From a virus (lineage: Duplodnaviria; Heunggongvirae; Uroviricota; Caudoviricetes): DNA of 12,549 bases. The translations under genes were made by a program, and so were the position numbers. This document shows positions 1,393 through 12,549 of the stretch, in pieces (positions within the stretch are counted from its first letter, which is position 1; every line of letters begins with the position of its first letter). The DNA is taken from IMG/VR virus record IMGVR_UViG_2585427728_000006, positions 1-12,549 of that record, one strand, 5' to 3'. Under the pieces are notes generated by a model. It saw only the letters and a list, made by a program, of their open reading frames with translations, searched no databases and had not been told where the DNA came from.

Positions 1393-1446
1393 ATTCTTAG
1401 AAACCGATCACATACAGCTGCATTTATTAAGGTTATCATCCGTTTC
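1393..1446 (+). promoter_or_regulatory. cyaR promoter region with putative CRP site (TTAGA-N6-TCACA, 1396-1411) and -10-like TATCAT (1434-1439)
   Basis: Half-site TCACA is perfect, left half-site is degenerate; spacing to the inferred cyaR 5' end fits a CRP-activated promoter. cyaR is known to be CRP-dependent. Exact positions not verified. Confidence 0.45.
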
Positions 1447-1533
1447 GCTGAAAAACATAACCCATAAAATGCTAGCTGTACCAGGAACCACCTCCTTAGC
1501 CTGTGTAATCTCCCTTACACGGGCTTATTTTTT
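1447..1533 (+). ncRNA. cyaR: Hfq-dependent small RNA CyaR (RyeE)
   Basis: Sequence GCTGAAAAACATAACCCATAAAATGCTAGCTGTACCAGGAACCACCTCCTTAGCCTGTGTAATCTCCCTTACACGGGCTTATTTTTT matches recalled cyaR; lies between yegQ and ogr as in E. coli K-12; ends in a U-tract. Confidence 0.85.
1507..1533. repeat. P2-type att core, left copy (prophage/chromosome junction next to ogr)
   Basis: 27-bp AATCTCCCTTACACGGGCTTATTTTTT, identical to 12046-12072; its reverse complement AAAAAATAAGCCCGTGTAAGGGAGATT matches the recalled P2 att core; overlaps the cyaR 3' end. Confidence 0.85.
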
Positions 1534-1595
1534 ACGTACAACAAATTGAAATAAAAGGATTTATTTCTGGTCACGTCCACACATTGACCACATCG

Positions 1596-1630
1596 ACAAA
1601 AAAGCCCCTCGACTGAGGGGCTTTCTGTTT
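1596..1630 (-). terminator. Rho-independent terminator downstream of ogr (hairpin usable on both strands)
   Basis: Stem GCCCCTC (1604-1610) / GAGGGGC (1615-1621) with 4-nt loop, flanked by an A-run upstream and T-rich run downstream, so a T-tract follows the hairpin on either strand. Confidence 0.55.
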
Positions 1631-1634
1631 GTAA

Positions 1635-1853
1635 TTACATCCACATAATTTGCTGCCCTGACGGCAAGGGGTGCGGCCTCACGGCGTGGACTTCTCCCGG
1701 CTTCACGATGTATCGCTGTACCGACTCATAAGTGATGAACGTGGCGCTGCAATTCACGTTCTGACACTGGTGATAACGCTCTTTTGTCGTGTCAGTGATA
1801 TAGCGACTTGTACGCGCATGTGCGGCATGCTGGCATAAAGGACAATGAAACAT
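1635..1853 (-). CDS. ogr: P2-type late gene transcriptional activator Ogr (zinc-finger)
   Basis: 72-aa product from ATG at 1853: MFHCPLCQHAAHARTSRYITDTTKERYHQCQNVNCSATFITYESVQRYIV..., matching recalled P2 Ogr/OgrK with the C-x2-C...C-x4-C zinc motif. The 93-aa ORF-track version is an upstream extension. Confidence 0.9.
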   Translation of the reverse strand: MFHCPLCQHAAHARTSRYITDTTKERYHQCQNVNCSATFITYESVQRYIVKPGEVHAVRPHPLPSGQQIMWM

Positions 1854-1934
1854 CGCGAGCACCTCTTCCGGTTTTGTTGATGGTGCCATTTTAGTTAATT
1901 TACCCTTATAAAACAAACAGATAAAAACAAAATA

Positions 1935-2189
1935 TTACTCATCACCTTCTGTTTCGTACTCCACATCAGAAAGCCTGACCTCAAGCTCTAAGGACGTCGT
2001 GAAGCCGCTGTTATTCAGAAAATGTGTCACTTTAGTGATTGTCCAGTCCTGCTCGTCTATGACGCGCTTAAAGCCTGACACTTTAACCGGTGTTTCCGTG
2101 TAAATATCTGCCCGACCAGTAGCCAGGCTGATGGAGAACTCCGCTACACCCCGTTGCAGCTTATCCCACTTCGCCTGAGCGGCACGCAT
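1935..2189 (-). pseudogene. C-terminal fragment of P2 gpD-like tail protein (yegZ-like remnant)
   Basis: 84-aa ORF ending ...TTSLELEVRLSDVEYETEGDE resembles the C-terminus of P2 gpD (about 387 aa in P2). Same frame stays open upstream to about 2312 with no plausible start, so the N-terminal roughly 70 percent of D is missing. Confidence 0.75.
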
Positions 2190-3135
2190 GGCCTGTGCTT
2201 TCGTGGCATATACCGTGGTCAGGGCAAAAACGTTATCAGCCTCACCGGCCAGATGGTATGAGCCACCGGTCAGCTTTACCGGTCTGGCAAAAAGCCTGCG
2301 TGCTGCCGTGCATCACAGCTCACCGATTTACGTCAAACGTAATATTCTGGCCTCGACATTTATCCCGCATCCGTGGCTTTCCCAGCAGGATTTCAGCCGC
2401 TTTGCGCTGGATTTTCTGGTGTTCGGTAATGCGTTTCTGGAAAAGCGTTACAGCACCACCGGTAAGGTCATCAGACTGGAACCCTCACCGGCAAAATATC
2501 CCCGCCGTGGCGTGGAGGAGAATGTTTACTGGTGGGTGCCGTCCTTCAACGAGCCGACACCTTTCGCGCCCGGCTCCGTGTTTCATCTGCTGGAGCCGGA
2601 TATTAATCAGGAGCTGTACGGCATGCCGGAATATCTCAGCGCCCTTAACTCTGCCTGGCTGAATGAGTCAGCCACGCTGTTCCGCCGCAAGTATTACGAA
2701 AACGGCGCACATGCCGGATACATCATGTACGTCACTGATGCCGTGCAGGATCGCAACGATATCGAAATGCTTCGCGAAAACATGGTCAAGTCGAAAGGCC
2801 GCAACAACTTTAAAAATCTGTTTCTCTATGCCCCGCAGGGAAAAGCCGACGGCATTAAAATTATCCCGCTCAGTGAAGTGGCAACGAAGGACGATTTTTT
2901 TAATATCAAAAAAGCCAGCGCCGCTGACCTGCTGGACGCGCACCGCATCCCCTTTCAGTTGATGGGCGGCAAGCCGGAGAACGTCGGGTCGCTGGGTGAT
3001 ATTGAGAAAGTGGCAAAGGTCTTTGTCCGCAATGAGCTTATCCCGTTACAGGACAGGATCCGCGAGATAAACGGCTGGCTCGGTCAGGAGGTCATCCGCT
3101 TTAAAAACTACTCACTGGACACTGACAACGGCTGA
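2188..3135 (+). pseudogene. N-terminally truncated P2-like portal protein gpQ
   Basis: ORF product resembles P2-family portal protein and ends next to cos, as Q does in P2. Frame opens only at 2179 and the first ~40 codons overlap the D fragment on the opposite strand, so the genuine Q part probably begins near 2314 and lacks its N-terminus (P2 Q is about 344 aa). No P gene or late promoter upstream. Confidence 0.75.
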
Positions 3136-3140
3136 ACATC

Positions 3141-3162
3141 GCCGCCTGCGGGCGGCTTTTTT
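3141..3162 (+). terminator. Rho-independent terminator after Q remnant
   Basis: GC hairpin GCCGCC-TGCG-GGCGGC (3141-3156) followed by TTTTTT (3157-3162), 5 nt after the Q stop codon. Confidence 0.6.
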
Positions 3163-3304
3163 ACACCCAGTCATCACGCCCTCACACGCTCACCACCGCA
3201 CAAAACAGCCCGCAGACACAGCAACGCCCCGGCGCAAAATCTAAACGCCGCCACGACGCGCTCAGACGCTGAAAAAATAAAATCAGCACCCCCGCCAGCG
3301 CGCA

Positions 3305-3323
3305 GTGCTTTCCCCGCCTCGCC
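3305..3323 (-). other. P2-type cos site (19-nt cohesive-end sequence)
   Basis: GTGCTTTCCCCGCCTCGCC is the reverse complement of GGCGAGGCGGGGAAAGCAC, the recalled P2 cohesive end; adjacent sequence toward Q also resembles the P2 left end. Confidence 0.75.
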
Positions 3324-3653
3324 CGCCCGCTTCATGGGGCGGTTTTGATGCAATACATGAGCATCGTAATGCCATATCGTGACAGGATTATAGAACATGA
3401 AGGTATACTAACTTACACATGCAAAAAAACGCACACTCAGGCATTCTCTTTGGAATACAATATGGTAAAAATATGATCATTTGAAGCTGCATATCCGTGC
3501 AGATTGAAATCAATGATGCTGCCCCTTCGTTAAGACAGCCAGGCCGCAATCTCTTGAGCTCAAGTGGACATCTAAGACAGAAAAACAATTTAAAGGCAAA
3601 GTTTTCGTAATGGTATCTTTGTCACAGCACACGCTAAAAAGGAACTAAACCTC

Positions 3654-4718
3654 ATGAGCACTCAGCAAGTCCTCAACATCCCTACAGCCGTATCGCAAGC
3701 GACCATCGAAAAATGGTTGAAAGGACTGGAACAGACAACGGAATTAGCCTTTTTTCGCCGTGTTGGCGGGCGGCATGGCTTCAATGTTACGAGCCGCTGG
3801 GCAAGTACATTGGATAACTTGAATAAAACTCTGAATGACCCATCGAAGCAAGGTACGCCTGCAAACTTTTCAAATCTCCGTTTGATTACGTTAAAAATAA
3901 TCACTAGCGTAAACCATTATTATTCAATTGATGGTATTAAATCAGGAACCATTAATTTAATACCAAATATAATCAACTACCCTCACCTCGATAAAACATT
4001 TAGCTCAGTATTTCCAATAAAACTTGATGATAATACAGGACTTCCTTCGACTCCTGGGCATTTCATTACTTCCATCGAAAAAATGGGGGATGGTATTGCT
4101 GTAATATATTCCTATATTATTTTAAGAAAAATCCAAGGAAGGAGTAAGCTACGTAGCAATCAATATCCAGAGCAGTACTTCAACACTGTTTTCATCCCTA
4201 ATGATTTAAGCCGTATAGAATATCGGGTTGATAAATCACTAGGTAAAAGAGCGTCTGAAAAAGCGATGGCAGATTTGCGCGCAAAATTTAATGAATTACT
4301 CGTGGAACTTAATATTAAGTTAGCTGTTGAAACTATAAATTTCTACAAAGCAATTTCCAATATTTACCTTGACAAACAATATGGAAGACTTGTTCAGGTT
4401 AATTTCCTTGATCCAAATGGAGATGAGGATGCTGTTCTTCGTTGCAGAACAGACCCCAATTATGATGCCCGTTATCGCGAGGTTGTATCTAAAACTCAGA
4501 ACGGAACACCTCGCTCATTGACCCTTGAAGTTTCTGGCGTTGCAGTGCGATTAGATAGTAAAGTTGCAAACGAAACAATTTCAAATGAAATTGGTTTTGA
4601 ACCCAGCAAAACTGATTGGTCTACAAACAAATTTTGTGGGGATTTTTATTTTACACAAACAGCAGATCATCAGGTGCATTATGGGGTGATAAATGATTTA
4701 CTCACAAGAGCGAAATAA
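3654..4718 (+). CDS. Hypothetical protein, cargo gene 1 of cos-proximal three-gene operon (354 aa, no recognisable family)
   Basis: ATG at 3654 with AAGGA about 10 nt upstream; long ORF in a strongly AT-rich block; first gene of a co-directional tightly packed trio. No Walker A, RT, TIR or Old-like motifs seen. Confidence 0.75.
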   Translation: MSTQQVLNIPTAVSQATIEKWLKGLEQTTELAFFRRVGGRHGFNVTSRWASTLDNLNKTLNDPSKQGTPANFSNLRLITLKIITSVNHYYSIDGIKSGTINLIPNIINYPHLDKTFSSVFPIKLDDNTGLPSTPGHFITSIEKMGDGIAVIYSYIILRKIQGRSKLRSNQYPEQYFNTVFIPNDLSRIEYRVDKSLGKRASEKAMADLRAKFNELLVELNIKLAVETINFYKAISNIYLDKQYGRLVQVNFLDPNGDEDAVLRCRTDPNYDARYREVVSKTQNGTPRSLTLEVSGVAVRLDSKVANETISNEIGFEPSKTDWSTNKFCGDFYFTQTADHQVHYGVINDLLTRAK

Positions 4719-5127
4719 AAAAATGCGCTCATTAGTGTATAAACAAAGAGTACTCCTGGAGAATGCCGGAAGCTCTTCTGTTTTCATAAATAATGATTCT
4801 CACATATATTATACAAATTTACTAGAATATGTAGAGGGTGATCTTGATCGTAATATTTATACAATCCCAGTATTACGAAAAGCCATAAAAACTGACAATT
4901 ATGAACATTTGCTACGAGTTGTTCAATTTTTTAGTAGCAATACCTCTTGTTTATTTAACGTTAAATATTGCTACGAACTAGAAAACATGGAGTTTGAGGA
5001 CATACAAGCTGATGAATATACCAACTATATATTAAACGGAGTTGAACCTGTAACTGCCAATGGTTCTGAAATTGAAGACTTCAATCCAAAATATCTTTCA
5101 TTTTATTGCATAATAAACCTGGATTGA
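4693..5127 (+). CDS. Hypothetical small acidic protein, cargo gene 2 (144 aa; alternative start at 4723 gives 134 aa)
   Basis: ATG at 4693 preceded by GGGGTG; overlaps gene 1 by 26 nt; stop TGA 5125-5127 lies 5 nt before the gene 3 ATG. Asp/Glu-rich, no recognisable motif. Confidence 0.6.
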   Translation: MIYSQERNKKMRSLVYKQRVLLENAGSSSVFINNDSHIYYTNLLEYVEGDLDRNIYTIPVLRKAIKTDNYEHLLRVVQFFSSNTSCLFNVKYCYELENMEFEDIQADEYTNYILNGVEPVTANGSEIEDFNPKYLSFYCIINLD

Positions 5128-5132
5128 CTGTC

Positions 5133-5981
5133 ATGAACAAACAACAAATCACATGTGAGTTAGGCAAAAGGGTTCATTTTGAAGATGAAGCGAGTTTTAT
5201 TGAAACATTATACTCGGATATAGAAGTCATAATAAAACTAATGGAGCAATCTAGTGACAAGTATTATTGTGATGATGAAGATAAACTAAGCCATACAATT
5301 GTAGCCTCTCTTGTACACCTAGGTTACGATGCAACCGAACAAACAAAAAAAAATGGAAGTGTGGACATAACCGTTCGTCCGAAAAATGGAGGATATACAT
5401 GGATTGCTGAAGCAAAAATCGGATACGGGAACCAAAAAATATTCGAGGGGCTACTTCAGTTGCTTACTCGCTATGTTAAAAGAGATAATCATGCAGGCAT
5501 GGTTATCTATTATCAAAAATCAAAGTCATCTTATCATTTCAAACAATGGCTGAAATACATATACAACCATGAGTGGAAGGATTATTGTACAAAGAAAGGG
5601 TCATTAAAAAAAGCGACTCCGCTACTTTCTCATTTAAAAAGTACGGTTTGTCCGAAAGTCAAACAAGGCTGTTGTTATGCTGACATTGATGTCATCCAAC
5701 CTTCGACTGATGGTCTAAAACTTCGCTGCTTCTATATTGACGTGCATCATGACCCAATTGACAGTAGTGGTTTAAAGAATAAGTCAATCGCCTTTGGTCA
5801 AGCCCAAAATAGAATTAGAGATTTATATCACTTATGGAAGACAGGACAGTTCGACGGCAGTATGATAGATGAATTATTTGAAGAAATAAAAATATATCAT
5901 AGCAATGAACTTGACGAAGAATATGAAGATGAAGATGAAGATGAAGATGAAGATGAAGATTCGAATATAAACTCAAAATGA
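5133..5981 (+). CDS. Hypothetical protein with PD-(D/E)xK nuclease-like signature and poly-(Glu-Asp) C-terminal tail, cargo gene 3
   Basis: ATG at 5133 (the ORF-track start at 5106 is TTG). Contains GSVDITV...(14 aa)...WIAEAKIG, i.e. D78 and E93-x-K95, a spacing typical of PD-(D/E)xK cores; C-terminus EYEDEDEDEDEDEDSNINSK. Confidence 0.7.
   Translation: MNKQQITCELGKRVHFEDEASFIETLYSDIEVIIKLMEQSSDKYYCDDEDKLSHTIVASLVHLGYDATEQTKKNGSVDITVRPKNGGYTWIAEAKIGYGNQKIFEGLLQLLTRYVKRDNHAGMVIYYQKSKSSYHFKQWLKYIYNHEWKDYCTKKGSLKKATPLLSHLKSTVCPKVKQGCCYADIDVIQPSTDGLKLRCFYIDVHHDPIDSSGLKNKSIAFGQAQNRIRDLYHLWKTGQFDGSMIDELFEEIKIYHSNELDEEYEDEDEDEDEDEDSNINSK
5925..5960 (+). repeat. Perfect hexanucleotide tandem repeat (GAAGAT)x6 inside gene 3
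   Basis: Six exact tandem copies of GAAGAT, in frame, encoding (Glu-Asp)6. Confidence 0.95.
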
Positions 5982-5994
5982 ACACCAAGAATCA

Positions 5995-6028
5995 CCCCAT
6001 TAAGTTTAGACATCCTAACTTGATGGGG
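5995..6028. terminator. Putative hairpin between convergent cargo gene 3 and A
   Basis: CCCCATTAAG (5995-6004) pairs with CTTGATGGGG (6019-6028) with one G-U position and a 14-nt loop; no strong T-tract on either strand, so function is uncertain. Confidence 0.3.
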
Positions 6029-6116
6029 AATTGACTTTTAAGTCTGTAACCCTAGCCATCAAAAATAGATTCATTTTAAATAAAAATATATCCGTTACGC
6101 CCCAAAAAAAATTGAA

Positions 6117-8387
6117 TTAATTAGGAAAAACACTCCCAGTTGGAATTTTTTTAAATTTATATTTCCTCCCATCGAAACATACTGTCGCACCGCGTGCTAA
6201 TACCTGTGGTTCCCATTGATTCGGCGTAATACCCTCCTGAGCCAACTCGAATCTTATACGTGGCGTCTGTTCCCGTTCAGCTTTTGTCATTCGTCCTGAG
6301 GGCGCTATCTGATAAGGTTTTAATGGCTCACAGCTCTTTTGCTGGCGATTTGGTCGTGGCGCATCGTGTTTTAGTGCGCATCTGAGCCCCGTCACGACTT
6401 CAGGGTCATCCCAGCCGATAACCCCGCGCTCAATCAGATTCAACACCGCTGCTGCTTGCTCAGAAGGTATGGATGTCATAGCAGGATCGCCACCGCTAGT
6501 TAGCTTTCCACAGTTATTGACAGGACTCCGAGGCGCGGCGATGCCGCTTTTTAAAGTCAAAGGCTCAACGACCGGCACTTTCGGAACAATGCGCCAGTCC
6601 GTCGTTCTGGTGATATGAATATGACGCGCGCCGAGATGCGGCGCGTAAATGCCGACCACTCTCTCGACTTCTTCCTCGTACTCGTTAACTTCATCCGACG
6701 GACTACGGGCAACCCTGACAGTCTGACAATCGCGCGGAACATTTGCCCCACCCTGCGCGCTGATATACAACGCAAAATCACCACTGTCTGCGGCAGCGCG
6801 TGCAGCCTCGACGCGTTCGTCAAACTCATCAGCAATGCTGACGCCGCGAGGCAATTTGCGTAGTTCACGGTAAGCCCCCATTGTCGGCAGGCCAACCGTT
6901 TTAAATTGCGGAATGCGCCACGTTGACGCCCATGCGGTAACAGCCGCGGCAGTGTCTTTCAGCGGCCTGCCGGTATCGTTATCGAGCTGACCATCCAGTG
7001 CATAGCCATCGATGTTTTTTGAGATGTATTTCGCGATATATCCCGCAGCACCGCCCCGGTTAAGGTGTTTTGCCTGAAAACGGTTTCGCGCGGCTCCTCT
7101 TTCGTCACCATCCTCTTTGAGCGCATAGCGACGCATGATTTCGATAATCTGGTTACGCTGGCGTGGATTACAAAAAAGCATCATATGCCAGTGCGGCGTT
7201 CCGTCGTGGTGTGGCTCGACGACTCGCAAACCGTAGACCTGTAAATCATTATCCTTGAATGCCGTGCGCATCAGGCTCCAGATGCGGCAGAGATAACGCT
7301 GCGCATCCTTTGGATTAAATGCCTCATCATTCCAGCCGTGATTTAGCTGGACGGTTTTACTTTCGCCTTTTCCGACCTGACGTGTCGGGTGATACTTTGA
7401 CGGCGCGGTCAGCGTGATAAACATCCCCACATCACCCTCTGCGGCGGCGTAACGCTCAATACCGGCGATGGTGTTCATCAGCTCCATCCGGCGAATTTCT
7501 GGATTAGAAATACTGCCCATCACCTTACTGATAAGGTCGATGCGCTCGCCGGTTTCCCTGTTTTCAAGGTCACACGATTTAAGAAATTCCAGATTTGCCT
7601 GGCGGCGCGCACACACATCACGAATGGCATGTTTACTGGCATAAGGAGAACGGTCTTTATTCACCTCCCCGACAGCAATCAGTAACGCCTCATGCCAGCG
7701 CATACGCTGGCCTTTAAGCTGACTAATCCACCACTCATCGTTAAACAGACGGGCAATGGCAGAATATGCCTGCCTCGTGGTCATCTGTCCTTTACGGTAT
7801 TTTTTCCAGTAGAGAGGGGAAATATTGAAAGCACGTGCAGCGCCAGCAACATGACCATACAGATGCGCCTGCGCCTCATCTGTAAACAGCGATTCTTTCT
7901 CGCCATGTGCATCAACCCATGCATCGCAGAGTTCCTCATACATCATGAAAAGCTGCGATGAGATACGGGCGGCAAACTTTTTCAGCTCCTTGTCATTCAT
8001 CCCCGGCAGACGCGCATAATGGTCACGCTCTGCCAGAAACAGCAACGACGCGTCGGTGTTCATTTCATGGCGCTGATTCACGCGCTCAATACGCGGCCAT
8101 AAACGGCGCTGAAAAGTGGATGTGAGGAAATAAAATCCGTGCACCGGGCTTTTATTGCGCCGGATGTAGTCATAGCGTGAAGTAAACAGCGAGCGCAAAA
8201 AGTAAGGCAGGCGATTAATCGTGGATAAAACACCTTGCACCTGACGCATCTCGTCACGTGTAAGGGGTCTTTCGCGCCCGACGGCCTCGCGTGGCGCGTT
8301 CCATGCATAAGCACCGGTAAACGTCTCACCGGTGCCTGCGGCAAATGCTGACGGAGGGACAAAACGCCCGGAGGCTTTAACGGCCAT
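6117..8387 (-). CDS. A: P2-type replication initiation protein gpA (rolling-circle HUH endonuclease)
   Basis: 756 aa from ATG at 8387 (MAVKASGRFVPP...), closely matching recalled P2 gpA, including the HWHMMLF (HUH) and YIAKYISK motifs. The ORF-track start at 8429 is TTG. Confidence 0.9.
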   Translation of the reverse strand: MAVKASGRFVPPSAFAAGTGETFTGAYAWNAPREAVGRERPLTRDEMRQVQGVLSTINRLPYFLRSLFTSRYDYIRRNKSPVHGFYFLTSTFQRRLWPRIERVNQRHEMNTDASLLFLAERDHYARLPGMNDKELKKFAARISSQLFMMYEELCDAWVDAHGEKESLFTDEAQAHLYGHVAGAARAFNISPLYWKKYRKGQMTTRQAYSAIARLFNDEWWISQLKGQRMRWHEALLIAVGEVNKDRSPYASKHAIRDVCARRQANLEFLKSCDLENRETGERIDLISKVMGSISNPEIRRMELMNTIAGIERYAAAEGDVGMFITLTAPSKYHPTRQVGKGESKTVQLNHGWNDEAFNPKDAQRYLCRIWSLMRTAFKDNDLQVYGLRVVEPHHDGTPHWHMMLFCNPRQRNQIIEIMRRYALKEDGDERGAARNRFQAKHLNRGGAAGYIAKYISKNIDGYALDGQLDNDTGRPLKDTAAAVTAWASTWRIPQFKTVGLPTMGAYRELRKLPRGVSIADEFDERVEAARAAADSGDFALYISAQGGANVPRDCQTVRVARSPSDEVNEYEEEVERVVGIYAPHLGARHIHITRTTDWRIVPKVPVVEPLTLKSGIAAPRSPVNNCGKLTSGGDPAMTSIPSEQAAAVLNLIERGVIGWDDPEVVTGLRCALKHDAPRPNRQQKSCEPLKPYQIAPSGRMTKAEREQTPRIRFELAQEGITPNQWEPQVLARGATVCFDGRKYKFKKIPTGSVFPN

Positions 8388-8652
8388 ATGAGCCAAAAGC
8401 CTCTGAACAACGCTTGCTGAGTTGCTCAACCTGCGCGTTTAAATCAGCAAAAGACTTTGCGCTTCCGGTCAGAATATCGTGATGCATCAGGCCGGAAACA
8501 AGCTGGCTTAATTTCGGATAATAACCAACCACCGCCAGCCATTCCTGACCGGCGTTTTTACCGCTTTCCGCTCTCTTTTTCTCGTGGAGAATAAACTGAA
8601 AGCTGTCACTGGTAACGACATAACGTTCGCCAATTTCAATACGAATACTCAT
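8377..8652 (-). CDS. P2 early-operon hypothetical protein (position of P2 orf83)
   Basis: 91-aa ORF; its ATG (8650-8652) overlaps the stop of the upstream gene, and its own stop overlaps the start of A; position between B and A as in P2. Confidence 0.7.
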   Translation of the reverse strand: MSIRIEIGERYVVTSDSFQFILHEKKRAESGKNAGQEWLAVVGYYPKLSQLVSGLMHHDILTGSAKSFADLNAQVEQLSKRCSEAFGSYGR

Positions 8653-8873
8653 GCCGTTCTCCGGTAATGTTTGTTTTTTGCTTCAAAGACTGACTGGCAG
8701 GAAACACAACGCGTGGCTGACGGATAAGCCGCACGACGGGCAGCAGGTATTGGCGCGTCACACTCTTCGCAAACCAGCGCAGAAGCACCGCAATGTTTTA
8801 CCCTTGCCGCGTTAATCTGACGCTCCAGTAATTCAGCCTGTTGTTCCTGAATAAAATCTACGTTGTCCGGCAT
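8649..8873 (-). CDS. TraR/DksA-family C4 zinc-finger protein (position of P2 orf82)
   Basis: 74-aa ORF with C-x2-C-x17-C-x2-C (CEECDAPIPAARRAAYPSATRCVSCQ); start overlaps the upstream stop (TAATG). Confidence 0.75.
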   Translation of the reverse strand: MPDNVDFIQEQQAELLERQINAARVKHCGASALVCEECDAPIPAARRAAYPSATRCVSCQSVFEAKNKHYRRTA

Positions 8874-9175
8874 TACCAGCTCCTTTTGTCGTTAAGTTTT
8901 TTAAATTCATCAGCGCAATAGCTGGCAATTTCTGTCGTTAATTTCGTCAGTTCATCCACGGAGGAGATTTGCTTGTGAAATACAGCGCGTTTAACAAGTA
9001 AATTGACCACATCAGACAGGAGATTTAATTCGTTCTGATAAATCGCGATAACAGACTCAGTTATTTCGCGTTTTTCTTTATCAAGACCAAGTTGAATAAG
9101 AGATAAATCGCCATTTTTCATAACGGTGATTTTTAAGGCGTTATTCAGTAATACAACTGAACGAGAACAGGACAT
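8873..9175 (-). CDS. P2 early-operon hypothetical protein (position of P2 orf81)
   Basis: 100 aa from ATG at 9175, which overlaps the stop of the upstream gene (TGATG); the 9178 start in the ORF track is TTG. Confidence 0.65.
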   Translation of the reverse strand: MSCSRSVVLLNNALKITVMKNGDLSLIQLGLDKEKREITESVIAIYQNELNLLSDVVNLLVKRAVFHKQISSVDELTKLTTEIASYCADEFKKLNDKRSW

Positions 9176-9399
9176 CAAAGCACCTCCCCGCGAGACAATC
9201 CGATATTGTGAAATTTTTCCGACTCCTGACTGAGCAGCTCGACTATCTCCACGCGGGATAACTCCGCCTTTGTGATGTGGCGAATCATGGCGTCAAGATG
9301 AGAAGAAAAGCGCGTCGCTGCGTCGGCCTGTGCTTCGGTTCTGGCCTGTTGCAGCAGTAATGCGTATTTACCGCACTGATTTTCAGAAACTGTATGCAT
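9175..9399 (-). CDS. P2 early-operon hypothetical protein (position of P2 orf80)
   Basis: 74 aa from ATG at 9399 (MHTVSEN...) with GGAGAAAG upstream; the longer ORF-track version starts at a TTG. Confidence 0.65.
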
Positions 9400-9462
9400 G
9401 ACTTTCTCCAGGCAAAAAGAAGCCCCGCACAATTAAGTGCGTTAAAAACTCTGGTTAATTAC

Positions 9463-9963
9463 TTAATGCAGATATTGCTCTGGTTTTACCGACGTCAGAA
9501 TTGTCGGTGCATACTCAAACAGGCTGAATAATTCACGTAATGCACGGAATAAAGCATCACGCCAGTAACATGATTCTTCATTAATTCGCCAGTATGGCTG
9601 GTTGAATTCTTTTTCAGTCAATCCGGCATGCATAAATAAAGTACGACGCTGACTGACTGTTAAAAAACTAATATATGCATACTCACTTGCGCCAACCTGA
9701 CGGCGTTTGGAGAATGCCCCACGCAATTCATCAATTGCACAAACCAGCCGTTCACGTTCGACGTCGTTCATTTCTTCAAAACGCATCGTTGCGTGACGCT
9801 GTTTTAACTGCGCATGGAAGCAAACCGTTAGCCGTTCGCGTTCCATCATCTGATTATAATAATCGCATGTCTCCTGCCAGCGAGGGACGGCCAGATGCTT
9901 ACCAATTATCCGGCGCATAGCTGCTGGCTGTTTTTCAACGAGATTGAGCGTCATCACTGTCAT
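9463..9963 (-). CDS. B: P2-type replication protein gpB (helicase-loader-like)
   Basis: 166 aa, MTVMTLNLVEKQPAAMRRIIGKHLAVPRWQ..., matching recalled P2 gpB over its whole length. Confidence 0.9.
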   Translation of the reverse strand: MTVMTLNLVEKQPAAMRRIIGKHLAVPRWQETCDYYNQMMERERLTVCFHAQLKQRHATMRFEEMNDVERERLVCAIDELRGAFSKRRQVGASEYAYISFLTVSQRRTLFMHAGLTEKEFNQPYWRINEESCYWRDALFRALRELFSLFEYAPTILTSVKPEQYLH

Positions 9964-10130
9964 TTCCAGACCCTCCGGCTTTTCAGAAAGGTCAGAGTCT
10001 TTTTTAACGGACTCTGTTTTTTGGTGCGGATAATGATTCCCTTACGCCCCTTACCGTGGGTGATGGTGAAGTCAATCGCCCTGGGGCTTTCGTTACGCAA
10101 TAACTGAGCAATACAACGAGGCTCATTCAT
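9960..10130 (-). CDS. Small hypothetical protein (position of P2 orf78)
   Basis: 56 aa from ATG at 10130 with a perfect AAGGAG upstream; the ORF-track start at 10154 is GTG. Confidence 0.6.
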   Translation of the reverse strand: MNEPRCIAQLLRNESPRAIDFTITHGKGRKGIIIRTKKQSPLKKTLTFLKSRRVWK

Positions 10131-10140
10131 ACGGTTCTCC

Positions 10141-10416
10141 TTAACGTGGTTCACCGAGACCTAACCACATCAACCAGCCGTCACGAATCTCTTTAGGACG
10201 GCTTTCATAAGCCAGTTTTAGTCCGTTATTCCATGCCGGAAGGTATACCCAATATTCACCAGCACGCCCCGATACTGACTGAGGGTCAGTAATCTCAATA
10301 ACTGGTAATTTCCCTTTCTCAATCATGCCCCTTACAGCTCTTGGAGTTTTACCAATGAGTTTTGCAAACTCCTGATAAGGCACGGCATCAGTCACGCTTA
10401 CAAGCTGTCTATTCAT
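10141..10416 (-). CDS. cox: P2-type Cox protein (excisionase / repressor of Pc)
   Basis: 91 aa, ...PYQEFAKLIGK...GRAGEYWVYLPAWNNGLKLAYESRPKEIRDGWLMWLGLGEPR, matching recalled P2 Cox; first gene of the leftward early operon. Confidence 0.9.
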   Translation of the reverse strand: MNRQLVSVTDAVPYQEFAKLIGKTPRAVRGMIEKGKLPVIEITDPQSVSGRAGEYWVYLPAWNNGLKLAYESRPKEIRDGWLMWLGLGEPR

Positions 10417-10537
10417 CTGCTACGATTCTCCCTTAGTGCTTCTAATGGCTCCTAATGGCTAATTATTGCCTAAAAGGATAACTCCAGAAGCACAACATTT
10501 CACACTATCAGCAAGAAATTACGCAATCGGAGTAATT
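10417..10537. promoter_or_regulatory. Divergent cox / C control region (Pe/Pc promoters and operator) with tandem 10-bp direct repeats
   Basis: Intergenic region between divergent cox and C; TCTAATGGCT / CCTAATGGCT tandem repeats at 10441-10460 are candidate C-repressor half-sites. Exact promoter elements not assigned. Confidence 0.6.
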
Positions 10538-10837
10538 ATGTCAATAGACGTTTCGGAGAAGTTGAAGCTAATCCGTGAATCTGAAAGGTTAAACCGTAAA
10601 GAATTCAGTGAATTAACTGGTGTAGCCTACAGCTCACTTTCGAGCTATGAGAGCCGGTCAAAAAACGCTGGAGTTGAAGCCATAATGAAGGTCTTACAAC
10701 ATCCCAGATTTACTAAATATACTTTGTGGTTCATGACTGATCAGGTAGCTCCAGAAGCCGGGCAAATTGCGCCCGCTCTCGCACACTTTGGGCAAAACGA
10801 AACAACGTCGCCCCACTCCGGTCAAAAGACTGGTTAA
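10538..10837 (+). CDS. C: P2-type immunity repressor C
   Basis: 99 aa from ATG at 10538; C-terminal half ...FTKYTLWFMTDQVAPEAGQIAPALAHFGQNETTSPHSGQKTG matches recalled P2 C; N-terminal DNA-binding part looks divergent from P2. Confidence 0.85.
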   Translation: MSIDVSEKLKLIRESERLNRKEFSELTGVAYSSLSSYESRSKNAGVEAIMKVLQHPRFTKYTLWFMTDQVAPEAGQIAPALAHFGQNETTSPHSGQKTG

Positions 10838-10952
10838 CAATTTATCGTGAATATATTCATCACAAGTGCCTACTATTGGTGGCTAAATTTCAGCCACCAC
10901 GAAAAAAGCGATTAGTAGTAGCAAAAAAAAGTACCACTCGGAGGGTTTTCTG

Positions 10953-11966
10953 ATGGCAATCAAAAAACTCGATGATGGTCGATATGAAGTGGACATCCGC
11001 CCTACTGGACGTAACGGAAAACGCATCCGTAGGAAGTTTGATAAGAAAAGCGAAGCTGTCGCTTTCGAAAAATACACGTTGTACAACCACCACAATAAAG
11101 AATGGCTATCAAAACCAACAGACAAACGACGTCTGTCGGAACTGACACAGATCTGGTGGGATTTAAAGGGTAAACACGAAGAGCATGGGAAATCTAATCT
11201 TGGAAAAATTGAAATCTTCACAAAAATAACGAATGACCCATGCGCATTTCAAATCACGAAATCCCTTATCAGCCAGTACTGCGCCACCCGAAGAAGTCAG
11301 GGTATTAAACCTTCGAGTATCAATCGTGATTTAACATGTATTAGCGGCATGTTTACAGCCCTGATTGAAGCGGAGTTATTCTTTGGTGAGCACCCTATCA
11401 GAGGGACAAAGAGGCTTAAGGAGGAAAAACCAGAAACAGGCTATCTCACACAGGAAGAAATTGCCTTACTGCTTGCAGCACTTGACGGCGACAACAAAAA
11501 GATTGCGATTCTTTGCCTGAGTACAGGAGCACGTTGGGGAGAAGCAGCTCGTTTAAAAGCAGAAAATATCATCCATAACCGCGTCACGTTTGTTAAAACG
11601 AAAACAAACAAACCACGCACCGTCCCGATCTCAGAGGCTGTTGCCAAAATGATCGCGGATAACAAACGAGGTTTTTTATTCCCTGATGCTGATTACCCTC
11701 GCTTCAGACGAACAATGAAAGCAATAAAACCGGATTTGCCAACGGGGCAAGCCACACATGCACTAAGGCACAGCTTTGCCACTCATTTCATGATTAATGG
11801 AGGAAGTATTATCACGCTACAACGGATACTAGGTCACACGCGGATTGAGCAAACTATGGTTTACGCTCATTTTGCGCCAGAGTACCTTCAGGACGCCATT
11901 TCTCTTAATCCGCTAAGAGGTGGTACTGAAGCCGAGAGTGTCCACACAGTGTCCACAGTAGAGTAA
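10953..11966 (+). CDS. int: P2-type integrase (tyrosine recombinase)
   Basis: 337 aa, GGAGGG SD upstream; C-terminal catalytic region HALRHSFATHF...LGHTRIEQTMVYAHF with the catalytic Tyr; downstream of C as in P2 and adjacent to the att core. Confidence 0.9.
   Translation: MAIKKLDDGRYEVDIRPTGRNGKRIRRKFDKKSEAVAFEKYTLYNHHNKEWLSKPTDKRRLSELTQIWWDLKGKHEEHGKSNLGKIEIFTKITNDPCAFQITKSLISQYCATRRSQGIKPSSINRDLTCISGMFTALIEAELFFGEHPIRGTKRLKEEKPETGYLTQEEIALLLAALDGDNKKIAILCLSTGARWGEAARLKAENIIHNRVTFVKTKTNKPRTVPISEAVAKMIADNKRGFLFPDADYPRFRRTMKAIKPDLPTGQATHALRHSFATHFMINGGSIITLQRILGHTRIEQTMVYAHFAPEYLQDAISLNPLRGGTEAESVHTVSTVE
11938..11957. repeat. Tandem direct repeats GTGTCCACA x2: putative Int arm-type binding sites
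   Basis: Two exact 9-bp copies 11 bp apart at the 3' end of int, about 90 bp from the att core; a related GTCCACACA occurs in the other arm at 1574-1583. Confidence 0.5.
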
Positions 11967-12045
11967 CGTTTAAGGGCTTTCAGTGGTAATTTATGCCGCT
12001 CAAACCCGCATTGTACCGTTGAAAGCCCCTACTGGTGACACCCTA

Positions 12046-12072
12046 AATCTCCCTTACACGGGCTTATTTTTT
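12046..12072. repeat. P2-type att core, right copy (prophage/chromosome junction next to int)
   Basis: 27-bp exact direct repeat of 1507-1533, followed by one extra T. Confidence 0.85.
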
Positions 12073-12136
12073 TATGCATAAGCCCTATCTCTGGTAACCG
12101 TCTTCCATTGACCACATCGATAGAATCCTCCTTCAT

Positions 12137-12169
12137 AGCACGATGCCTTTCACTTATCGGCATCGTGCT
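12137..12169. repeat. Perfect 11-bp inverted repeat (stem-loop) between att core and yegR
   Basis: AGCACGATGCC (12137-12147) and GGCATCGTGCT (12159-12169) with an 11-nt loop; no adjacent T-tract on either strand. Confidence 0.5.
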
Positions 12170-12231
12170 CCCACAGGTTCCGGCTACGCACAGCCAGAAC
12201 GCGCATATTTGACGCTTACCAAAAAATATTC

Positions 12232-12549
12232 TCACTCTCCACATTTGAATGTCAGACGAGCGACACCATGTAATCCTACACCTTCTGTCTTCAGCTCAAC
12301 TATTTGCATTTTTTTGCCCTGAGTAACACAGAAATGAGTTGCATCATTTTTTACTATATTTTCTGCACCAGATATTCTACCCCTGGCTAAAGAAGCTTCG
12401 GCTTCGGTGTAGTATTGGTTATCGAGTTTACGCTGAATATTACTTTTATATGCAAGACCAAATTTACCGATACTTGTCTCATCATTATGCACAGCACAAC
12501 CAGACATAATAAAAATACTAATTAATGATATAGCAGCTATCTTTTTCAT
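12232..12549 (-). CDS. yegR: Putative lipoprotein YegR
   Basis: Complete 105-aa ORF (start codon is the last 3 nt of the window) with signal peptide and lipobox (IFIMSGC); matches recalled E. coli YegR. Confidence 0.85.
   Translation of the reverse strand: MKKIAAISLISIFIMSGCAVHNDETSIGKFGLAYKSNIQRKLDNQYYTEAEASLARGRISGAENIVKNDATHFCVTQGKKMQIVELKTEGVGLHGVARLTFKCGE

Follow-up and report, generated by a model that had tools for sequence, protein, structure and literature searches.

The P2-like element described here (positions 1507-12072 of the window, which is the whole 12,549-nucleotide stretch analysed) is probably a late-gene-deleted, defective (cryptic) prophage at the P2 attachment site of E. 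coli, and an ordinary product of prophage decay. It measures 10,566 bp including both att cores (10,539 bp for the calculated excised circle), in agreement with the sequence-only reading, which had put it at about 10.6 kb, far under P2. The features named there (att cores, int, cox, C, A and B, the origin inside A, and cos) were all found where that reading had placed them. The element sits at the 3' end of cyaR with yegQ on one side and yegR on the other, and the window is 100% identical to the NCBI draft genome GCA_000713425.1.

The shape of the element is set by one junction and the late-gene remnants around it:

1635..1853, minus strand: ogr, late-gene transcription activator, complete (tblastn 72/72 aa, 100% to P2 Ogr; Pfam Ogr_Delta, 2.1e-21)
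1935..2251, minus strand: D', last 106 codons of tail gene D, a pseudogene (tblastn, D residues 282-387 of 387)
2250..2251: deletion junction with 2 bp microhomology (CA), from a three-way alignment of the window, P2 D and A23/P2 Q
2252..3135, plus strand: 'Q, portal gene minus its first 47 codons (tblastn, Q residues 48-343 of 344, 97.3%; Pfam Phage_portal, 5.8e-14)

The junction fuses P2 position ~23638 (in D) to ~1072 (in Q). About 22.6 kb is gone: the window lacks P2 coordinates ~1072-23637, i.e. every morphogenetic and lysis gene. With tblastn we found none of the P, O, N, M, L, lysis, baseplate, fibre, sheath, tube and tape-measure genes in the window, which bears out the earlier statement that no capsid, tail or terminase is encoded, D' and 'Q being the only remnants. 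The same reading held that "exactly" the minimal set of functions had been kept; this goes too far, as ogr, the last 106 codons of D and Q minus its first 47 codons are also retained. D' is 96.6% identical to P2 DNA up to base 2251, and 'Q lies in frame within a chimeric 315-aa open reading frame that starts at ATG 2188. A promoter scan found no promoter-like site upstream of 'Q, the late promoter having been deleted; the ogr promoter region (1854-1934) is still present. We propose that an intact prophage lost the ~22.6 kb in a single illegitimate recombination at the 2 bp microhomology, spanning Q codon 47 to D codon 281. The terminase, scaffold, capsid, head completion, lysis, baseplate, fibre, sheath, tube and tape-measure genes would have been lost in this step, leaving int, C, cox, orf78, B, orf80-83, A with ori, cos, ogr and a three-gene cargo in the old/tin hotspot.

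The D'/'Q junction was found in none of 5,426 complete E. coli genomes, in no GTDB representative genome and in no IMG/VR contig. As the source genome is a draft and the junction is missing from complete genomes, it might be argued that a normal 33 kb prophage was mis-joined during assembly. However, an independent metagenome contig (OLIL01001019.1, 99.78% identical) has the same junction together with both att sites, both chromosomal flanks and 12 substitutions of its own. The structure is thus not an assembly artefact, and we give this explanation almost no credence. These two sequences are the only carriers found and occupy the same chromosomal site; the 12 substitutions and a 12-nt in-frame repeat change that separate them are all non-disruptive.

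Sites and genes for integration and excision are as follows:

1445..1530, plus strand: CyaR (RyeE) host sRNA gene (Rfam RF00112, 100.7 bits against a gathering threshold of 47, E 1.2e-19, full model 1-85)
1507-1533: attR core, 27 bp, ogr-proximal, perfect direct repeat of 12046-12072
1532..1624, minus strand: attR arm (IHF site ~1532-1565, Int P-arm sites ~1569-1596)
1601-1624, minus strand: ogr/F-operon terminator, a terminator-like hairpin
10141..10416, minus strand: cox, excision directionality factor and Pc repressor (91/91 aa, 83.5% to P2 Cox)
10953..11966, plus strand: int, tyrosine integrase (337/337 aa, 99.7% to P2 Int)
11932..12072: attL (P' arm 11932-11958, Cox boxes 11956-12029, core 12046-12072)
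12046-12072: attL core, 27 bp, perfect direct repeat of 1507-1533

The core, AATCTCCCTTACACGGGCTTATTTTTT, is the same as the P2 attP core, and since the cyaR terminator is itself this core, integration rebuilds the 3' end of cyaR. The attR arm matches P2 24249-24382 at 133 of 134 bases and attL matches P2 24356-24498 at 142 of 143: P arm, P' arm and Cox boxes are the same as in P2, and the IHF site is one base off. The single change in Int relative to P2 is M264T, and Cox keeps residues G22, W81 and W84.

Replication and packaging sites are likewise present:

3136..3352: cos region (tQ terminator 3141-3156; 19-nt cohesive end GTGCTTTCCCCGCCTCGCC at 3305-3323)
6117..8387, minus strand: A, replication initiator nickase, 756 aa (91.8% to P2 A over 745 aa, without stops)
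~6513-6536: ori nick sequence GCGCCTCGGAGTCCTGTCAA, inside A
8377-8652, 8649-8873, 8873-9175 and 9175-9399, minus strand: orf83, orf82, orf81 and orf80 (full length, 95-100% to P2)
9463-9963, minus strand: B (166/166 aa, 98.8% to P2)
9960-10130, minus strand: orf78 (56/56 aa, ~98.2% to P2)

The nick region is identical to that of P2, and A, which conserves the catalytic motifs HWHMM and GYIAKYISK, has the same length as A of complete prophages at 98.3% DNA identity. P2 A works mainly in cis. The cohesive end is that of P2, with flanks conserved across 3136-3352; over 352 aligned bases (window 3001-3352), identity to the junction of the circularised P2 ends is 93%, and the cos region is 99.7% identical to that of a complete prophage (L013). 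Compared with P2 by tblastn, int, C, cox, orf78, B, orf80-83, A and ogr are all full length and free of frameshifts and stops. Inactivating mutations in int or A, which the sequence-only reading had named as counting against mobilisation, were looked for by alignment and none was found. The undamaged ~8 kb of early genes, the att arms and cos are also what would be expected under selection for mobility, which speaks against the decay reading.

Two features make up the immunity switch:

10417..10537: Pe/Pc switch region, 100% identical to the prophage record vB_EcoM-720R8
10538..10837, plus strand: C, immunity repressor (99/99 aa, 64.6% to P2 C)

The immunity type is unlike that of P2, which corrects the earlier description of the element. 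From cox to C the DNA is 99.9-100% identical to four other loci (L006, L018, L019 and L021). The switch region holds a direct repeat, CTAATGGCT, present twice (10442-10462), which may be the operator judging from its sequence; a promoter scan gave no match to a consensus promoter in this region. The logic of C, Cox and Pc has been described (PMC3936717).

The cargo consists of three genes at the P2 old/tin hotspot, between Q/cos and A, a position included among the known P2/P4 defence hotspots (PMC9122126):

3654..4718, plus strand: cargo gene 1, 354 aa, predicted fold (AF2 pLDDT 89) weakly like the DNA-binding protein RdgC
4693..5127, plus strand: cargo gene 2, 144 aa, weak PHROG match only (0.0084)
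5133..5981, plus strand: cargo gene 3, 282 aa from ATG 5133 (open reading frame from TTG 5106), with an acidic DE-repeat tail

Genes 1 and 2 have no match in Pfam, PADLOC or NCBIfam. The best Foldseek match of gene 1 is RdgC (2owy, prob 0.97, E 4e-3, TM 0.34-0.38), and gene 2 is always flanked by genes 1 and 3 in related loci. Gene 3 matches phrog_9664 (2.6e-74) and the PADLOC candidate PDC-S54 (1.6e-7); D78...E93-A-K95 is invariant among 30 homologues, and the predicted structure (AF2 pLDDT 85) weakly matches EcoRV, HindIII and Cap4 (E ~0.2). It is a probable PD-(D/E)xK nuclease. Based on this motif and the weak fold matches, the cargo is probably an anti-phage system in which the putative nuclease is partnered by an RdgC-like DNA-binding protein. 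The cargo is shared by complete-looking loci at this site, namely that of strain A23 and eight more (L008, L009, L011-L016). Copies in other prophages and remnants are 99.2-99.9% identical to the cargo, whereas in those loci the adjacent Q-cos segment is ~96% identical (except for L013, 99.7%) and A ~98%; near-identical cargo between less similar flanks points to recombination at the hotspot. For the immunity region and int, the loci that match at 99.5-100% form another set than those sharing the cargo.

Decay at this locus takes many forms. Six other remnants (10.9-15.9 kb), a set biased because it was chosen by similarity to the window, keep int through A with differing late-gene junctions; GF4 has a D'/'Q junction unlike the one described here, in LR-28 the stretch from B into part of A is gone, and nothing of the early region is left in S3 and the K-12-type remnants. 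Many independent decay products, each with its own junctions, fit ordinary decay and not the spread of one mini-element. The early region is intact in the six remnants too, some of them multiply late-deleted, which hints at non-random retention, though in a biased set.

Such retention could also be read as domestication into a defence and immunity island: the host-killing genes were deleted and the remainder kept by host-level selection, with C giving superinfection immunity, the cargo phage defence, and the mobility functions as passengers. The early operon would then be retained by an addiction-like constraint, as loss of C alone would unleash A and Cox. Consistent with this, C through A and the hotspot cargo are intact in the six remnants despite at least one late-gene deletion, in LR-28 the loss of B and most of A has spared C, int and both hotspot cargoes, the cargo is nearly identical to copies at the same site, and none of the differences between the two element copies is disruptive; moreover, conserved defence genes in defective P2 elements have been reported with domestication named as a possibility (PMC13586616). 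On the other hand, the remnant sample suffers from the ascertainment bias mentioned, remnants without C or cargo also occur (K-12 type, S3), and intact genes show 2 synonymous and 3 non-synonymous changes, two copies being too few to gauge purifying selection. The rarity of the element equally fits a recent neutral deletion. We judge domestication to be improbable.

As a decayed prophage, the element would at present be held by C, which keeps the early promoter shut; this implies passive replication with the chromosome and, presumably, immunity against P2-like phages that share its immunity type. The cargo operon would use its own promoter, and the element could neither form particles nor bring about lysis. 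Int, Cox, both att sites, A/ori and cos look functional, so excision and packaging by a heteroimmune P2-like phage that shares Int and att would be possible in principle. Mobilisation by a helper, as proposed by the sequence-only reading, is thus no more than a possibility. The part of that proposal which stands is that all excision, replication and cos parts look intact and virion and terminase genes are absent; the private junction, the decay spectrum and the lack of an anti-repressor or capsid-size gene tell against a satellite.

In its full form this proposal is of a nascent satellite. Helper or resident Int and Cox would excise the element, its own A would replicate it from ori once derepressed, and helper terminase would cut cos; a P2-size head would take it up as a trimer, or else a monomer would go into the small head formed when a P4-like satellite provides Sid. 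After injection it would integrate at cyaR in a new host, bringing the cargo along. Every needed cis and trans part is intact, and the retained ogr encodes a homologue of the P4 transactivator delta (PMC8628076). Sizes are compatible: 3 x 10,539 bp comes to 31.6 kb or 94% of P2, and a monomer of 10.5 kb to 91% of P4 (11.6 kb; PMC7552001). Heteroimmune relatives exist whose int DNA is at least 98.4% identical and which are integrated at the identical 27 bp core, with three or more immunity classes at this site. Helpers are common, given that P2-like sequences occur in ~31% of complete E. coli genomes. There is a precedent in Sp13 of O157 Sakai, which lacks head and packaging genes but was induced, amplified and packaged (PMC2669165), and a reductive-evolution model for hitchers has been published (PMC11389934).

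Nonetheless, horizontal spread is not seen: the junction is private, confined to one chromosomal site and absent from IMG/VR. Remnant sizes (10.5-15.9 kb, each with its own junctions) are not clustered at 1/2 or 1/3 of P2, and replication genes are gone from other remnants at this locus. The element lacks Sid and Psu, and without an epsilon-type anti-repressor its own C should hold A off; the cis action of P2 A is a further point against. P2 prophages are not SOS-inducible (PMC2669165). A 10.5 kb cos molecule fits a P2-size head only as a multimer, which is inefficient even for P4 at three genomes per P2 head (PMC6893505; bioRxiv 10.64898/2026.03.30.715334). Overall, we regard a nascent satellite as unlikely. 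With neither anti-repressor nor capsid-size control, helper packaging of the decayed prophage is expected to be rare, and the cargo more likely spreads by homologous recombination into P2-like phages that enter the cell, whose identity to the element is 96-98% on both sides of the hotspot.

Gene and site order is the same as in P2 and in complete Peduovirus prophages at cyaR/yegQ-yegR (A23, CP028752; vB_EcoM-720R8, ON470606). Att core and arms, int, cox, B, orf78-83, A/ori, cos and ogr are held in common at 93-100% DNA identity by segment; A23 has the same three-gene cargo in the same hotspot and vB_EcoM-720R8 an identical immunity region, whereas orf91, tin and old of P2 are replaced by other cargo in the element.

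The E. coli K-12 P2 remnant, ogrK plus the yegZ fragment of D beside cyaR, shares the chromosomal site and the attR-ogr-D' end. This remnant, and functional ogr genes in K-12 and B, were reportedly described by Barreiro and Haggard-Ljungquist (1992) and Slettan et al. (1992). K-12-type records have 2,639 bp between the ends of the window against ~2,009 bp for empty sites, i.e. a remnant of ~630 bp. Missing from the K-12 remnant are int, C, cox, B, A, cos and the second att core, all of which the element keeps; excision, replication and packaging are therefore closed to it in K-12.

P4 resembles the element in size (11.6 against 10.5 kb), in lacking virion genes, and in its 19-nt P2-type cos, tyrosine integrase and Ogr/delta-family activator; P4-like satellites also carry variable cargo adjoining cos (PMC8628076, PMC7552001). 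Unlike P4, the element has no sid, psu, epsilon, alpha primase-helicase or alpA and replicates by the P2 A/B rolling-circle system; its sequence is a P2 derivative unrelated to P4.

Sp13 (O157:H7 Sakai) is the nearest experimental precedent for mobilisation: by its published description it is P2-like, excisable and without most morphogenetic and packaging genes, as is the element, and it was amplified and recovered as packaged, DNase-resistant DNA (PMC2669165). It has a P4 epsilon-like gene, the proposed cause of its inducibility (PMC2669165), which the element lacks. Packaged DNA of this morphogenesis-deficient prophage and defective P2-like prophages that keep hotspot genes are thus already published. 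The latter, incomplete or defective prophages with near-identical defence genes (PMC13586616; NAR 2026), combine a defective P2 backbone with hotspot cargo near-identical to the copy of intact prophages, as the element does. They are reported to contain numerous mobility-gene pseudogenes, the replication (primase) gene being hit most often among core genes, whereas in the element replication, integration and cos look intact and the damage is a single clean deletion.

A tblastn search of the P2 proteins against the window, which is identical over 12,549/12,549 bases (100%) to contig JORZ01000087.1 of the draft genome GCA_000713425.1, recovers the early and lysogeny module in the order known from P2: int, C, cox, B and A with its internal origin, at 65-100% identity to the P2 proteins. 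Together with ogr and the small reading frames, the retained genes are as follows:

ogr: 100% identity to P2; full length, no stop or frameshift
int: 99.7% identity to P2, with the single change M264T; full length, no stop or frameshift
C: 64.6% identity to P2; full length, no stop or frameshift
cox: 83.5% identity to P2; full length, no stop or frameshift
orf78, B, orf80, orf81, orf82, orf83: 95-100% identity to P2; full length, no stop or frameshift
A: 91.8% identity to P2 over 745 residues, 756 aa in total; full length, no stop or frameshift

The 756 aa of A equal the length of this protein in complete relatives, and its motifs HWHMM and GYIAKYISK are conserved. The nick sequence of the origin within A (GCGCCTCGGAGTCCTGTCAA) is identical to P2, as is the 19-nt cohesive end of cos (3305-3323), which adjoins the portal gene; the wider cos region (window 3001-3352) shows 93% identity to the end junction of circularised P2. 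Among the late genes nothing is detectable beyond residues 48-343 of Q (2252-3135) and residues 282-387 of D (1935-2251). Since the terminase, capsid, lysis and tail operons are incomplete, the element (1507-12072) is a defective P2-like derivative and not an autonomous phage. Judged from sequence, the modules for integration and excision, immunity, replication and terminase recognition carry no damage, and those for making particles and lysing the cell have been lost. The sequence-only reading had listed att, int, cox, C, A/B with the origin and cos as present, and capsid, tail and terminase genes as absent, and this holds on both counts; inactivating mutations in int or A, named there as grounds for giving up the idea, are absent in the comparison with P2. 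Its claim that exactly the minimal set is kept goes too far: all named functions are there, but ogr and the stumps of D and Q are retained as well, and the immunity differs in type from P2.

The chromosomal surroundings contain three features:

1-1362: yegQ/trhP, E. coli gene at one window end
1445-1530: cyaR sRNA gene (Rfam RF00112, 100.7 bits), between yegQ and the P2-like element
12232-12549, minus strand: yegR, E. coli gene at the other window end

These flanks are matched in 5,424/5,426 complete E. coli genomes. The flanking segments 1-1506 and 12073-12549 show a 100% match to several strains in which the cyaR site is empty (e.g. FORC 064 and the B-derived B95.deltaA), so that the prophage was acquired, or was lost by those strains, recently in comparison to the divergence of the flanks. 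The attachment core of P2 is the terminator hairpin and U-run of cyaR, and the 27-bp core AATCTCCCTTACACGGGCTTATTTTTT is found as a perfect direct repeat at 1507-1533 and 12046-12072, as in P2 Int-type integration at the P2 site. The left att flank (IHF site, Int P-arm sites and ogr terminator) matches P2 at 133/134 bases and the right one (P' arm and Cox boxes) at 142/143. The cyaR gene stays intact on integration because the element brings an identical 3' end; an orphan second copy of the cyaR terminator is located at 12046-12072. On the yegR side of the right core, window 12086-12125 holds a degenerate copy of the P2 Int P-arm (CATTGACCACATCGA...; compare 1562-1601), which scores 44 in local alignment where 200 shuffles reach at most 35. 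Given this copy outside the core, the 'bacterial' side of the right att resembles a scar left by an earlier P2 integration.

Homology to the tail gene D runs to base 2251 and homology to Q begins at 2250, the parents sharing only CA at the join. Missing are P2 coordinates of about 1072 to 23637 (~22.6 kb). No IS element or repeat is present at the join of the D remnant (D') and the truncated Q ('Q), so the ~22.6 kb were lost in a single illegitimate-recombination deletion within a resident prophage. The deletion also created a chimeric reading frame (2188-3135, 315 aa), in which 19 antisense codons of D' are in frame with portal residues 48-344. The promoter scan finds no promoter-like site upstream of this frame, and an exact-protein look-up of its product returned nothing on record. 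If expressed, the truncated portal could in principle disturb the head assembly of a helper phage.

With a 300-base junction query the exact join is seen in 0/5,426 complete E. coli genomes. The only genome spanning both halves, E. coli GF4, was rejected as a carrier: its join is 38 bp longer and represents an independent event. The junction 32-mer TCAGCCTCACCGGCCAGATGGTATGAGCCACC has no match in GTDB representative genomes or IMG/VR, and a metagenome scan yielded one contig, OLIL01001019.1, at the same chromosomal site. This contig spans window 1431-12172 at 99.78% identity, including both chromosomal flanks, and compared with GCA_000713425.1 it has 12 substitutions and lacks 12 nt, in frame, from the acidic repeat of cargo gene 3; no change is disruptive. 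An assembly artefact is ruled out by the same junction in an independent contig with 12 substitutions of its own. An estimate of selection from the two copies was dropped, as they hold too few differences. The carriers of the junction form a small lineage, always at the same site. This bears on the suggestion in the sequence-only reading that the element might be mobilised as a satellite by a P2-like helper phage: a search for the same junction in other backgrounds and viromes, serving as an indirect test of mobility, was negative (complete E. coli genomes, GTDB representatives, metagenomes and IMG/VR), and the junction bears no trace of horizontal spread.

We surveyed the cyaR site in an even-step sample of 60 of the 5,443 matching records. 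The site is empty in 37/60 and carries the K-12-type remnant of ~630 bp (ogrK and a D stub) in 3/60; the rest comprises other remnants in LR-28 and S3, 1 stray cos fragment and 17 records with P2-like sequence at this or other sites. The best matches to the window include six further short elements, 10.9-15.9 kb in length (FT130, H5, GCA_016686975, UID2309220004, H1827/12 and 23CRST025). All six keep int, C, cox, orf78, B, orf80-83, A and Q as well as hotspot cargo (a retron, SIR2 with an ATPase, an ABC-three-component system or the cargo of the window), and their late genes were lost by differing, often multiple, deletions. As these six were picked by similarity to the window, selection for the early region is not demonstrable from the set. 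The remnant in LR-28 lacks B through part of A, and S3 and the K-12 type lack the whole early half. In this LR-28 locus (L030; NZ_AP027512.1), which occupies the same site, B and most of A are gone and C and int are kept; its cargo consists of DarT with a macro-domain protein at the Z/fun hotspot and a DUF7380 protein at the old/tin hotspot.

Several apparent breakpoints are shared between P2-like remnants, the partners changing from one breakpoint to the next: L018 has D residue 232 in common with L019, V residue 121 with L007, M residue 146 with L003 and P residue 497/498 with L020. At this residue level of comparison, the shared breakpoints could reflect either stepwise decay from common ancestors or deletion hot spots. 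In complete E. coli genomes, matches of any length are found for the early region in 1,725 and for the late region in 1,666, against 1,183 and 1,556 at a coverage of at least 80%; as a census of early-only remnants these counts are too crude, and they show just that such remnants are a small minority. Overall, the simplest reading is that prophages decay recurrently and independently at a favoured site and that the window represents a clean early stage. The locus displays a spectrum of decay rather than one successful architecture, which speaks against the satellite proposal.

Complete prophages with the same cargo occur at the same site in E. coli A23 (CP028752) and at eight complete-looking loci (L008, L009 and L011-L016). 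The cargo of the element is 99.2-99.9% identical to the A23 type and its A gene 98.3%. The cox-C switch and int are 99.5-100% identical to a group formed by the prophage record vB_EcoM-720R8 (ON470606) and the loci L018, L019 and L021. The Q-cos segment is ~96% identical to most loci sharing the cargo, with the complete prophage L013 (99.7%) as the exception. By these identities, the element is a mosaic in the manner usual for P2.

The cargo lies in the old/tin hotspot of P2:

3450-3477: promoter-like site ahead of the cargo operon (promoter scan)
3654-4718, plus strand: cargo gene 1
4693-5127, plus strand: cargo gene 2
5133-5981, plus strand: cargo gene 3

The operon (3654-5981) has a G+C content of 34-36% against ~50% in its surroundings. 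For gene 1 a confident predicted model was obtained with RdgC as best PDB match, and its predicted fold is RdgC-like. Gene 2 (144 aa) has no match except a weak PHROG hit. Gene 3 combines an invariant D...E-x-K nuclease motif with an acidic (DE)n tail, and its predicted model, also confident, shows weak matches to restriction-enzyme folds. In a search of PADLOC-DB v2 and Pfam, gene 3 alone matches (candidate family PDC-S54, 1.6e-7) and nothing is found for genes 1 and 2. The GATGAA repeat in the acidic tail (window 5923-5934) is variable in length, the metagenome copy being 12 nt shorter; the products of gene 3 at other loci measure 280-288 aa. The cargo genes co-occur across Enterobacterales in P2-like contexts, and contigs from Serratia, Cronobacter, Yersinia, Rahnella, Citrobacter, Enterobacter and Klebsiella carry homologues of genes 1 and 3 together; P2-like contigs of IMG/VR also contain members of the family. 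The position in a P2 hotspot (PMC9122126, PMC13586616) and the D...ExK motif suggest a putative anti-phage system, and the three genes together make an uncharacterised, widely distributed candidate for defence. Backbones 2-4% apart carry an almost identical cargo, which is the mark of homologous recombination at the hotspot. For the cargo, and for the immunity region, rescue into incoming P2-like phages would be a more probable route of spread than satellite transfer.

In P2, C represses Pe, and Cox represses Pc (the source of C and int) and directs excision (PMC3936717); repressors of this type are not SOS-cleavable (PMC2669165). From P2 biology, C would be expected to keep the element silent and passively inherited, and the host should gain immunity to phages of the same immunity class. 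This class is not that of P2, as C shares just 65% identity with its P2 counterpart; a third switch region is found in A23-type prophages. Given these differing switch regions next to near-identical int and att sequences, heteroimmune P2-like phages with near-identical int and att exist. A consensus scan of the switch region returned no sigma-70 promoter for Pe or Pc; the region is 100% identical to that of the complete prophage vB_EcoM-720R8. Between cox and C, a direct repeat CTAATGGCT occurs twice, 11 bp apart (window 10442-10462), and may be the operator of this immunity type.

Mobilisation by a P2-like helper is possible in that every prerequisite part is present, P2-like sequences occur in ~31% of complete E. 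coli genomes and Ogr is the counterpart of P4 delta (PMC8628076). In addition, the P2-like prophage Sp13 of strain Sakai has no head or packaging genes and yet was induced and found packaged (PMC2669165), and the idea of defective prophages as possible 'proto-hitchers' has been published (PMC11389934). Regarding size, three copies of the element amount to 94% of the P2 genome and one copy to 91% of the P4 genome (PMC7552001). The seven remnants measure 10.5, 10.8, 11.7, 13.3, 13.8, 15.2 and 15.8 kb, and 5/7 reach 90-105% of P2 when doubled or tripled. We rejected this fit as evidence, since about half of the range of 10-18 kb would fit by chance; the sizes do not cluster at 1/2 or 1/3 of P2. 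Sid and Psu are missing. A P2 head would be only partly filled by a monomer, and three P4 genomes are packaged into one P2 head with low efficiency (PMC6893505; bioRxiv 10.64898/2026.03.30.715334). No anti-repressor is encoded on the element, so that its own C should hold A off. Moreover, P2 A works mostly in cis, and P2 prophages that have been derepressed contain too little Int; both points count against a satellite. A 3.8 kb 'plasmid' that matches cos perfectly was rejected as a natural cosmid, being an unplaced linear fragment of a P2-like prophage.

In the functional sense, a phage satellite is a non-phage element whose signals promote its packaging into the particles of a helper (PMC11389934); structurally, the element has no virion genes of its own (capsid, tail, terminase) and an intact helper-type cos. 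It might be argued that it is a satellite caught at birth, i.e. a helper phage that a single step cut down to int, C/cox, A/B/ori, cos, ogr and cargo and that now parasitises heteroimmune P2-like phages, the early-region-only remnants at cyaR being repeated births of such hitchers, but we regard this as quite unlikely. If it were true, the 10.5 kb monomer could travel in the small T=4 heads to which P4-like satellites divert P2 assembly, with P4 epsilon possibly derepressing the element; alternatively, a trimer could fill normal P2 heads.

The core set of P4-like satellites consists of int, psu, delta, sid, alpA, epsilon and alpha (PMC8628076). Each reading frame of the element is a P2 homologue or a cargo gene, and the cargo has no Pfam, PHROG-function, NCBIfam or PADLOC match to psu or sid. 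The replication genes are P2 A/B with no reading frame to spare, so the alpha primase-helicase replicon and the epsilon anti-repressor are absent. An integrase and an Ogr-family activator like delta are shared with P4-like satellites, but as P2 genes and not as P4 orthologues. Features of PICIs and cfPICIs (an alpA-type regulator, a primase-replicase, packaging redirection or own capsid genes) are likewise absent among its reading frames. Lacking psu, sid, epsilon, alpha and alpA, the element is not a P4-like satellite, PICI or cfPICI; its genes place it in the P2-like lineage.

No recent descent from phages is seen for P4-like satellites (PMC8628076), and no clean natural example from a cos phage is known for the 'reductive evolution' route (PMC11389934), so helper-dependent transfer, if shown, would matter more than decay. 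The element is a convenient test case for the origin of satellites: none of the required parts is damaged, its parental type is known, and both helpers and P4 belong to the standard laboratory repertoire. Defective P2-like prophages with near-identical hotspot genes were described in 2026, in a study that weighs domestication against continuing gene exchange (PMC13586616). Should the element be only a prophage in decay, it is a further well-resolved case of this known class and illustrates how one microhomology deletion suffices to leave a P2-like phage non-lytic but still carrying immunity and hotspot cargo. Whereas the mobility genes of those prophages, the replication gene above all, are often pseudogenised, the present element differs by one clean deletion, with its replication, integration and cos functions intact.
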